IMG/VR virus record: IMGVR_UViG_2529293223_000011
Direction: 5' to 3' (one strand)
Origin: a virus
Taxonomy: Duplodnaviria; Heunggongvirae; Uroviricota; Caudoviricetes
DNA: 12,152 bases
A model generated the notes under the pieces. It had not been told where the DNA came from and ran no database searches. It saw only the letters and a list, made by a program, of their open reading frames with translations. This document shows, one piece after another, positions 6,700-8,663 of this stretch. Every line of letters starts with the position of its first letter. Position 1 is the stretch's first letter. A program made the position numbers and the translations under genes.

Positions 6700-6732
6700 A
6701 ATTACCTCTCGCTTTTCTGCAATAAAAAAGGC

Positions 6733-6744
6733 ACCATTTCTGGT
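6733..6744. repeat. Left copy of the 12-bp IS4 target-site duplication ACCATTTCTGGT
   Basis: Identical 12-mer at 6733-6744 and 8171-8182, immediately flanking the IS4 inverted repeats. Confidence 0.8.
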
Positions 6745-8170
6745 GTAATGCCGATCAGTTAAGGATCAGTTGACCGATCCAGTGGCTGTGTAAGAATCCG
6801 GAAACGCTCACTTGTTTCCGGATTTTTTTATGCACATTGGACAGGCTCTTGATCTGGTATCCCGTTACGATTCTCTGCGTAACCCACTGACTTCTCTGGG
6901 GGATTACCTCGACCCCGAACTCATCTCTCGTTGCCTTGCCGAATCAGGTACTGTAACGCTACGCAAGCGCCGTCTTCCCCTCGAAATGATGGTCTGGTGT
7001 ATTGTTGGCATGGCGCTTGAGCGTAAAGAACCTCTTCACCAGATTGTGAATCGCCTGGACATCATGCTGCCGGGCAATCGCCCCTTCGTTGCCCCCAGTG
7101 CCGTTATTCAGGCCCGCCAGCGCCTGGGAAGTGAGGCTGTCCGCCGCGTGTTCACGAAAACAGCGCAGCTCTGGCATAACGCCACGCCGCATCCGCACTG
7201 GTGCGGCCTGACCCTGCTGGCCATCGATGGTGTGTTCTGGCGCACACCGGATACACCAGAGAACGATGCAGCCTTCCCCCCAGACACATGCCGGGAACCC
7301 GGCGCTCTACCCGCAGGTCAAAATGGTCTGCCAGATGGAACTGACCAGCCATCTGCTGACGGCTGCAGCCTTCGGCACGATGAAGAACAGCGAAAATGAG
7401 CTTGCTGAGCAACTTATAGAACAAACCGGCGATAACACTCTGACGTTAATGGATAAAGGTTATTACTCACTGGGACTGTTAAATGCCTGGAGCCTGGCGG
7501 GAGAACACCGCCACTGGATGATACCTCTCAGAAAGGGAGCGCAATATGAAGAGCTCAGAAAACTGGGTAAAGGCGATCATCTGGTGAAGCTGAAAACCAG
7601 CCCGCAGGCACGAAAAAAGTGGCCGGGACTGGGAAATGAAGTGACAGCCCGCCTGCTGACCGTGACGCGCAAAGGAAAAGTCTGCCATCTGCTGACGTCG
7701 ATGACGGACGCCATGCGCTTCCCCGGAGGAGAAATGGCGGATCTGTACAGTCATCGCTGGGAAATCGAACTGGGATACAGGGAGATAAAACAGACGATGC
7801 AACTGAGCAGGCTGACGCTGAGAAGTAAAAAGCCGGAGCTTGTGGAGCAAGAGCTGTGGGGTGTCTTACTGGCTTATAATCTGGTGAGATATCAGATGAT
7901 TAAAATGGCGGAACATCTGAAAGGTTACTGGCCGAATCAACTGAGTTTCTCAGAATCATGCGGAATGGTGATGAGAATGCTGATGACATTGCAGGGCGCT
8001 TCACCGGGACGTATACCGGAGCTGATGCGCGATCTTGCAAGTATGGGACAACTTGTGAAATTACCGACGAGAAGGGGAAGGGCCTTCCCGAGAGTGGTAA
8101 AGGAGAGGCCCTGGAAATACCCCACAGCCCCGAAAAAGAGCCAGTCAGTTGCTTAACTGACTGGCATTAC
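6745..8170 (+). mobile_element. IS4 insertion sequence (1426 bp) in the J-lom intergenic region, with 12-bp target duplication
   Basis: Terminal inverted repeats GTAATGCCGATCAGTTAAGG (left) and GTAATGCCAGTCAGTTAAGC (right, reverse complement). Contains an IS4-type DDE transposase reading frame (MHIGQALDLVSRYDSLRNPLTSLGDYLDPEL...). Length and 11-13 bp duplication fit IS4. Confidence 0.88.
6830..8156 (+). pseudogene. IS4 transposase (InsG-like), split into two overlapping frames by a frameshift at about 7277-7283
   Basis: ORF 6812..7399 (N-terminal ~190 aa) and ORF 7227..8156 (C-terminal ~290 aa) are consecutive parts of one ~440-aa IS4 transposase but in different frames. The join falls at a C-rich run (gccttccccccagaca) where the first frame reads AAFPPDTC and the second reads [11 protein letters not shown]. 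Probable start is ATG 6830 (MHIGQ). Confidence 0.7.
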
Positions 8171-8182
8171 ACCATTTCTGGT
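8171..8182. repeat. Right copy of the 12-bp IS4 target-site duplication ACCATTTCTGGT
   Basis: See left copy. Each copy together with flanking bases can still form a short ACCA/TGGT hairpin. Confidence 0.8.
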
Positions 8183-8204
8183 GCTCGTATCTGGGTTATA
8201 AAAT

Positions 8205-8663
8205 TCAGCTGATACTGATACCTGCTGTGGATTTCTTCATCACAACAACCAGCAAATCGCTGATACTTGCTGTGGGATACCAGCCATTTACCAGCCATGC
8301 CGATACAGAAAACTCCAGCGTCATGTGACCGTGACCGGCAGGCATATCAATAACACCCGTATATATCAGCGTATTATCCAGGGTCGTTCGGTTATAAATT
8401 TCAGCACCGTTTTTCTTCACTATCAGGCGGCATGACGAATAAATATTGTTATTCTTCCGCTCATGTTTAGCACCGCGAAACGCCACCGCGGGAATAACAA
8501 TTTGCCGATCAAACGGCTGATCGTCATAAACCCTGACGGTAATGGTCCCTGATGGCCACCTCTCCGGTGCCGGGAGTCCCGTGGGAAAGGTTTGCCCACT
8601 GTTTTAACGAGATCGCCTTCAATCTGGTTCGCGGACAATTTTCCCAGAACCCGACAGTTCTTA
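8205..8663 (-). pseudogene. J: Out-of-frame 3' remnant of the J gene encoding the C-terminal domain
   Basis: After the J stop at 8664-8666 the J-like sequence continues in two other frames. Frame of ORF 8423..8638 reads [33 protein letters not shown] (lambda J: VTIAENCTINGTLRAEKIVGDIVKAASAAFPRQ). Frame of ORF 8205..8486, extended upstream, reads [32 protein letters not shown]...VIDMPAGHGH...VVVMKKSTAGISIS (lambda J ends DWPSGTRTVTVTDDHPFDRQIVVLPLTFRGSK...IVDMPAGRGN...VMVIKKQALGISVV). Confidence 0.8.

Follow-up and report, generated by a model that had tools for sequence, protein, structure and literature searches.

The insertion sequence (IS) IS4, represented in Escherichia coli K-12 by insG (IS4 family, IS4 subgroup), carries 18-bp terminal repeats and a single DDE transposase gene and duplicates about one helical turn of its target, usually 11-13 bp. 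Mayaux et al. reportedly described it, in Gene in 1984, in the attenuator of pheST, with a pseudo-palindromic target of the form AAA-N20-TTT. Some bacterial group II introns, for their part, insert after intrinsic terminators. Among insertion sequences, those that target repetitive extragenic palindromes (REP), such as IS1397, ISKpn1 and ISRm22, choose structured extragenic palindromes (PMC1525189). Here we describe an IS4 copy lying between the tail gene J and the outer-membrane protein gene lom in the IMG/VR record IMGVR_UViG_2529293223_000011 (Caudoviricetes), of which the whole stretch of 12,152 nucleotides, called the window below, was analysed. Like the REP-targeting elements and the group II introns, IS4 lands at conserved intergenic hairpins and avoids gene disruption; unlike them, it employs a DDE transposase, goes into the hairpin at its loop or apex and leaves duplications of 11-14 bp. 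With the pheST case the window shares integration into a terminator-like hairpin. The A-tract and T-tract that bracket the duplication at such targets return in the survey of IS4 junctions given below; the window itself reads TAT rather than TTT in the right arm and has a prophage accessory gene, not an attenuated operon, downstream.

IS4 between J and lom

The arrangement is very probably the product of a simple one-step transposition of a canonical IS4 into the apex of the putative J-lom terminator hairpin. The parts of the locus are:

6746-8169, plus strand: IS4, 1424 bp, placed by alignment to K-12 IS4 (L008) and other copies, with ends as in the K-12 annotation
6746-6763, plus strand: left terminal inverted repeat of IS4, TAATGCCGATCAGTTAAG, same as the K-12 end
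8152-8169, minus strand: right terminal inverted repeat of IS4, TAATGCCAGTCAGTTAAG, same as the K-12 end
6831-7399 (open reading frame 6812-7399), plus strand: N-terminal part of the transposase, PF13006 Nterm_IS4, frame lost at the C-run 7270-7275
7227-8156, plus strand: C-terminal part of the transposase in another frame, PF01609 DDE_Tnp_1, DDE domain
8140-8165, minus strand: 11-bp hairpin then UCUUUUUCGG, inside the right end of IS4, from the terminator scan and an inverted-repeat search
6732-6745, no strand: left duplication copy, CACCATTTCTGGTG; on the minus strand a residual 5-bp hairpin then CCUUUUUU
8170-8183, no strand: right duplication copy; minus-strand hairpin with its U-tract replaced by the IS4 sequence that follows
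8184-8204, minus strand: spacer of 21 nt from the J stop codon to the hairpin, with a C-to-T change at 8185
6700-6731, minus strand: remaining native lom leader, with the Shine-Dalgarno sequence GAGAGG and the U-tract TTTTTTATT at 6721-6729

The original prediction had already recognised IS4 at this place, and the identification is borne out by a 1424-bp alignment to the K-12 element and by both transposase domain matches. The two are the same element, identical at 1418 of 1426 positions; they differ by six substitutions, by a 2-bp internal deletion in the C-run that splits the transposase frame of the window copy, and in the length of the target duplication, which is 14 bp here and 12 bp of unrelated sequence in K-12. 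Reference copies, in K-12 and elsewhere, end in TAATGCC…GGCATTA and measure 1426 bp, the window copy having only 1424 because two bases are missing from its C-run. Its 18-bp terminal repeats agree at 16 of 18 positions between left and right, and it carries the allele typical of Shigella and enteroinvasive E. coli (EIEC), marked by six substitutions. Other IS4 copies possess the same ends and, again, unrelated flanks.

An exact direct repeat of 14 bp, CACCATTTCTGGTG, abuts both ends of the element so defined (6732-6745 and 8170-8183), an arrangement for which the chance expectation is about 4^-14. A 12-mer, ACCATTTCTGGT, had earlier been noticed at 6733-6744 and 8171-8182 and taken for duplicated target DNA. 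Its positions are correct and it is a real target repeat, but the duplication is 14 bp long, not 12, and IS4 begins one base later and ends one base earlier, which corrects the anatomy. The element implied by the shorter repeat, 6745-8170, reaches 1426 bp only because the 2-bp internal deletion happens to make up for the difference. A duplication length of 12 bp is ruled out by the reference IS4 ends.

The empty site is found in relatives. When the window is compared by BLAST with an IS4-free EIEC relative (L003), window 4205-6745 corresponds to 4438-6976 and window 8170-12152 to 6963-10939; the 14 bp at 6963-6976 are thus single in the relative and double in the window, the flanks are collinear, and nothing else is rearranged. 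Joined to each other, the flanks of the window read AATAAAAAAGGCACCATTTCTGGTGC, and on the minus strand GCACCA-GAAA-TGGTGC then CTTTTTTATT. An assembly artefact or rearrangement was considered and rejected on account of these collinear flanks and of the same junctions in independent assemblies.

Compared with K-12, the two bases missing at 7270-7275 split the transposase, the frame of which is probably, though not certainly, broken. The run holds six C in the window, seven in a second assembly with the same insertion (L177), and CCCCCGCC in K-12 and in two IMG/VR contigs (L190 and L204), which carry other single-base homopolymer indels; the break may represent real decay or a homopolymer sequencing error. 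Besides the hairpin in the right end of IS4, the junction of which folds at -33 kcal/mol (z = -4.85), another with 14-bp arms ending in T7 lies at 6792-6827 on the plus strand, just before the transposase ATG. The inward-facing hairpins near both ends of IS4 are positioned to stop transcription entering from outside.

The J-lom hairpin and the expression of lom

The target had been described as a palindromic, terminator-like hairpin whose core now occurs twice, and the reconstructed minus strand and the empty sites of relatives both agree with this. In L003 the 14-mer is single and tops the hairpin GGGCACCA-GAAA-TGGTGCC, followed by TTTTTTATT, just downstream of the J coding region, in J orientation and 21 nt past the stop codon. 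Its 67-bp spacer reads, on the J strand, TGA, 18 nt, GGGCACCA-GAAA-TGGTGCC(T), TTTTTATT, 23 nt with GAGAGG, and ATG; a terminator scan scores an 8-pair terminator-like site followed by TTTTTATT. Part of the 18-nt segment pairs in the stem, its counterpart in the window being 21 unpaired nucleotides. The minus strand of the reconstructed window site, GCACCA-GAAA-UGGUGC-C-UUUUUUAUU, has a stem of six pairs against eight in L003 because of the C-to-T change at 8185 (ctcg in the window; cccg in L003, L001, L190 and L204), which shortens the stem. Folded alone, as the original prediction had proposed for the reconstructed spacer, this hairpin reaches -9.7 kcal/mol (z = -4.2), and 0 of 200 shuffles were as stable. 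The change at 8185 may postdate the splitting of the hairpin.

A comparison with uninterrupted prophages, also proposed at the outset, finds the hairpin widely conserved. An exact-pattern scan of IMG/VR for the lom leader returned 120 stretches with about 124 uninterrupted spacers, all 124 of which contain a hairpin and then an invariant T6ATT run; the stretch corresponding to 6700-6731 is likewise invariant. Three main stems occur, GGGCGCCA, GGGCACCA and GGGCGTCA. Over 17 distinct spacers, two of the seven pairs (GC/AU and CG/UA) vary at both members and 96.6% of cells are paired. When one arm is displaced by 1-3 columns as a control, the share is 24-56%, and the observed covariation was matched in 0 of 500 shuffles; it has to be read in the light of the relatedness of the spacer sequences. 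Of 5426 complete E. coli genomes, 4283 contain a spacer of the J-lom family, as do 173 phage records. The lambda counterpart is a hairpin, CGTCCG-GGAA-CGGGCG, different in sequence and the same in layout, with a T-run after it, and the GenBank records of mEp460 (JQ182728) and Ayreon (MF807953) annotate both the J-lom site and the hairpin after lom as rho-independent terminators. The J-lom terminators of mEp460, Ayreon and lambda share with the window their position, the U-tract and the leader to lom, and the reconstructed target has exactly the stem of Ayreon, GGCACCA-GAAA-TGGTGCC; what sets the window apart is that IS4 divides the hairpin into two incomplete copies and that base 8185 of the stem is mutated. 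In a rare spacer variant (L015 and one other IMG/VR locus) the loop on the J strand is TTTC instead of GAAA, GGGCGCCA-TTTC-TGGCGCC, as if the top of the hairpin had been inverted.

Overall, the J-lom hairpin is terminator-like and can be regarded as a putative intrinsic (rho-independent) terminator. The palindrome might instead be a conserved element of another kind, in DNA or RNA, for example a site bound by a protein or a 3' hairpin that stabilises the J mRNA, with IS4 reading nothing but the shape of the DNA. It would suit such an element that late transcription in intact phages must cross the hairpin to reach stf/tfa, that no Rfam family matches anywhere in the window at gathering thresholds, and that IS4 also inserts at some palindromes without T-tracts (L135 and L169, for example). 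However, the invariance of the T6ATT run directly after the hairpin, the covariation of a stem placed 21 nt past the stop codon, the same architecture with a different stem in lambda, and the annotation of the site as a rho-independent terminator in two phage records make this an improbable explanation. Moreover, polymerase modified by Q reads through terminators and must pass the J-lom terminator to reach stf/tfa, so a terminator at this place agrees with the crossing by late transcription. The predicted terminator would already insulate lom from ordinary transcription in intact lambdoid phages.

To follow what the insertion might mean for lom, two further features are needed:

6100-6699, minus strand: lom, an Ail/Lom outer-membrane beta-barrel protein gene, 199 aa, intact, by PF06316 Ail_Lom on the identical product in L176
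6052-6073, minus strand: terminator-like hairpin after lom, AGCCCGCTGGTTCAGGCGGGCT then TTTTGTGGGG, from the scan, with an annotated terminator at the equivalent position in mEp460 and Ayreon

On insertion IS4 cut its target around the loop of the hairpin with a stagger of 14 bp, which left the loop and the five uppermost stem pairs (CACCA-TTTC-TGGTG), as can be read directly in the window, on either side of the element. The half next to J still folds into a hairpin (-8.3 kcal/mol), but with its U-tract gone it is not expected to terminate any longer, and transcripts coming from J would run instead into the 11-bp hairpin and U-run in the right end of IS4, 30 nt further on. The half next to lom would retain, 32 nt before the start codon of that gene, a weakened hairpin of five pairs (stem 6745..6732, -6.4 kcal/mol) together with the U-tract. 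Between the IS4 end at 6746 and the lom ATG at 6699 lie 46 nt, the distance given in the original prediction. With only these 46 bp of native upstream DNA and without a recognisable promoter, lom is probably cut off from its earlier upstream transcription. The insertion had also been thought to uncouple lom from read-through of the late tail operon; given that J is a pseudogene in a decayed prophage, such read-through may no longer exist, and the prophage being already defective, there is no consequence for phage production.

The DNA of lom is 92-94% identical to that of many lambdoid phages. Of the features expected of a moron, a downstream terminator of its own is present (hairpin and T-run, 6073-6052), and promoter scans of the lom strand upstream of lom found no sigma-70-like promoter in either the filled or the empty locus. 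It is known that lom is transcribed in lambda lysogens (PMC1151598, PMC2147009), its promoter being uncharacterised and little known (PMC2147009). A relaxed scan gave a single weak hybrid candidate on the minus strand, ATTACA-17-TTTATT, straddling the left end of IS4, and this raises the thought that the insertion, far from silencing lom, activates or maintains it. The candidate -35 element, ATTACA at 6749-6744, would comprise the last four bases of IS4 and two of the duplication; with a spacer of 17 bp and a -10 element, TTTATT, at 6726-6721, it agrees with the consensus at 8 of 12 positions and would give a leader of about 20 nt including the Shine-Dalgarno sequence, and lom is still intact. 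Yet the candidate falls below the scan threshold, its -10 element does not have the conserved A at position 2, and the weakened hairpin and U-tract lie between the two hexamers, not upstream of them, so that activation from this junction appears unlikely. If lom contributes to the surface properties of Shigella, the insertion could alter its expression.

Target preference and recurrence of IS4

Why IS4 should have entered this very hairpin is a matter that the original account did not address, and the target preference of the element would explain the choice of site. IS4 junctions were surveyed by scanning species-representative genomes, IMG/VR and metagenomes once each, which yielded 76 distinct left and 99 distinct right flanks, with the following preferences:

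Left flank, -20 to -17: A-rich, with A at -18 in 64 of 76
Left flank, -4: G in 61 of 76
Left flank, -1: G in 65 of 76
Right flank, +1: C in 83 of 99
Right flank, +4: C in 81 of 99
Right flank, +17 to +19: T-rich, with T at +18 in 84 of 99

The resulting consensus is mirror-symmetric: the duplicated segment, CNCC…GGNG, has an A-tract on its left and a T-tract on its right, each about 3 nt away. This is the DNA anatomy of a GC-rich terminator hairpin. At 30 distinct two-ended sites, a stem centred on the duplication has at least 5 bp in 18 and at least 7 bp in 16, compared with 15% and 2.8% of random positions, respectively. Lengths of duplication at 27 distinct duplicated sites were 11 bp (3 sites), 12 bp (10), 13 bp (10) and 14 bp (4). 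IS4 is found in the adhE terminator (duplication CCCCTTCTGGGG), in the rpoD terminator (CACCTTTTCGGTG) and behind J in a different prophage, beside the sit operon. Six of 12 IS4 sites lie within 35 nt of the stop codon of a long open reading frame, in a check that is noisy, spurious long frames spanning some of the sites. The survey agrees with the reported AAA-N20-TTT target, and the A/T-arm consensus itself is old knowledge. The determinants of IS4 targeting appear to be these arms together with CNCC…GGNG, and not a REP consensus or an RNA-guided mechanism. The window site fits the left arm (AAAAAA, GG and the duplication) and the CNCC…GGNG core, from which we infer that the target preference of IS4, presumably read by a transposase dimer, chose the J-lom site; the element's own target rule, rather than chance, would account for its position.

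Many copies with exact IS4 left ends also occur outside Escherichia and Shigella (L132-L175), in Kosakonia oryziphila REICA_142, a Scandinavium metagenome-assembled genome (MAG), Photorhabdus khanii and a Buttiauxella MAG. About 17 contigs of one Kosakonia genome and about 10 of the Scandinavium MAG carry such ends, most of them beside flanks with an A-tract and a hairpin. Several copies (L162, L151, L146 and L175; S. flexneri SFBU1023 and E. coli ECMA0423) are without a matching duplication. In L162 the left flank of the rpoD terminator is joined to the right flank of the L151 site, which indicates recombination, probably inversion, between IS4 copies.

The order lom-IS4-J recurs in the second assembly (L177, 99.93% identical) and in the two IMG/VR contigs L190 and L204; in a third assembly the contig breaks at the junction. 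Among the 5426 E. coli genomes this order was found in none, and in nine E. coli genomes IS4 sits in the same hairpin, with the same 14-bp duplication, stf replacing lom; these stf-side copies show the K-12-type allele at all six diagnostic positions. Further, a full-length 1426-bp IS4 in opposite orientation occupies the same hairpin in L184 (IMGVR_UViG_2874945390_000010), between a mEp460-like J end and lom, with the 14-bp duplication CACCAGAAATGGTG (locus on the minus strand, 695-2120 in reverse-complement coordinates). The J-lom hairpin has been hit by IS4 in at least three independent events, in both orientations and always with the same 14-bp duplication. The expansion of IS4 in Shigella and EIEC, lineages that share distinct IS4 alleles (Hawkey et al., PMC7373316), fits this picture of recurrent hits.

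It could be argued that a single ancient insertion behind J spread among lambdoid prophages by homologous recombination and that IS4 never inserted in the window prophage itself. The Shigella lom-IS4-J and E. coli stf-IS4-J arrangements do have an identical 14-bp duplication and the same orientation relative to J; the tail regions of lambdoid phages are mosaic, J being 95.7% identical to L003 and its neighbours 98.7-99.6%; and L190 combines the same insertion with a different J 3' end. Against this, the lom-side and stf-side copies are different IS4 alleles that disagree at all six diagnostic positions, and the similarity of their left flanks ends 11 bp beyond the duplication. The opposite orientation in L184 cannot stem from the same event, and since the site matches the general IS4 consensus, independent hits are to be expected. 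Spread of one insertion therefore seems a poor account of the window, and transposition into the hairpin remains the preferred one.

A few considerations nevertheless weigh against a one-step transposition governed by a terminator-like target. The right arm of the window site, CTCGTAT, has no T-run (TAT, not TTT), so that the consensus is matched on one side only, and the 14-bp duplication exceeds by one base the range usually quoted for IS4. The C and G at the ends of the 14-mer are the preferred flanking bases, and the window copy taken by itself is compatible with a 12-bp reading. The junction survey is a convenience sample to which the same few genomes (Kosakonia, Scandinavium, S. flexneri) contribute several sites, and whatever is said here of termination, read-through and lom expression is deduced from sequence. 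That the repeated 12- to 14-mer could belong to the ends of IS4, as the original prediction had itself allowed, can be dismissed with near certainty: the terminal C and G of the 14-mer do extend the inverted repeat by one base, and IS4 junctions very often have G at -1 and C at +1, but K-12 and other IS4 copies are flanked by the unrelated CAGAACCAAGAT, CCCCTTCTGGGG, CACCTTTTCGGTG and CCCCAGTCAGTCC, and the 14-mer stands once in thousands of IS4-free J-lom spacers, the empty site of the relatives. On the two checks proposed at the outset, presence of the hairpin in uninterrupted prophages and comparison with IS4 reference ends, the outcome favours the original prediction.

More speculatively, and with the balance still somewhat against it, IS4 might be a specialist for terminator apices, whose transposase would read the A/T arms together with the stem tops, CNCC…GGNG, and whose stagger of 11-14 bp would follow from how far apart the arms stand, with the J-lom, adhE and rpoD hairpins as recurrent hot spots hit independently and in both orientations. 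If so, terminators would be split systematically as IS4 expands in Shigella and EIEC, and read-through from one gene into the next could be rewired. Both the element and its family are already known, as is its target habit, and the event as such is ordinary. A search of the open literature found no explicit link between IS4 and terminator hairpins, no 14-bp class of duplications, no recurrent phage hot spot and no paper that sets out the target rule, and the explicit terminator-apex pattern, the 14-bp class and the repeated hits at the J-lom hairpin are mildly new. One conserved putative phage terminator is thereby documented as a repeated target of IS4.

The host prophage

The window matches contig AFGE01000038.1 of assembly GCA_000211975.2 with 100% identity; the assembly is named Shigella boydii 5216-82 (methods table, PMC8342411), and the window is the right end of a decayed lambdoid, ipaH-carrying prophage remnant of Shigella boydii. 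The genes around the insertion are:

1-249: DinI-like gene
850-2601, plus strand: ipaH
about 2949-4204, minus strand: IS3-family element, with a 100-aa HTH_Tnp_1 open reading frame and a 272-aa rve open reading frame
4203-6078, minus strand: DUF4376 gene and tail-fibre gene
8205-11690, minus strand: J (tail tip / host specificity) by its Pfam domains, a pseudogene, and the start of gene I

Within E. coli, the nearest relatives are EIEC strains in which the genes stand in the same order and neither insertion sequence is present. The stop codon of J is at 8205-8207. Relative to L003, J has a tandem duplication of 7 bp (cgtcaca) at about 8669-8682 and has lost one base near 8572, changes that together shift the frame for about 100 nt and produce several in-frame stops (window 8487-8690, minus strand); the homologue in L003 is also annotated as a pseudogene, with an internal stop. 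With J a pseudogene, a second insertion sequence nearby and the insertion already present in public Shigella assemblies, the locus itself matters little.

The ipaH gene is of the type III secretion system effector E3 ubiquitin ligase type, with the domains LRR_TTSS and NEL, and is called ipaHd in EIEC annotation. It stands at the prophage end, beside the tail-fibre genes and preceded by the DinI-like gene. The IS3-family element lies between ipaH and the DUF4376 and tail-fibre genes and is missing from the EIEC relative; elsewhere in E. coli a similar element carries the annotation IS600-like.

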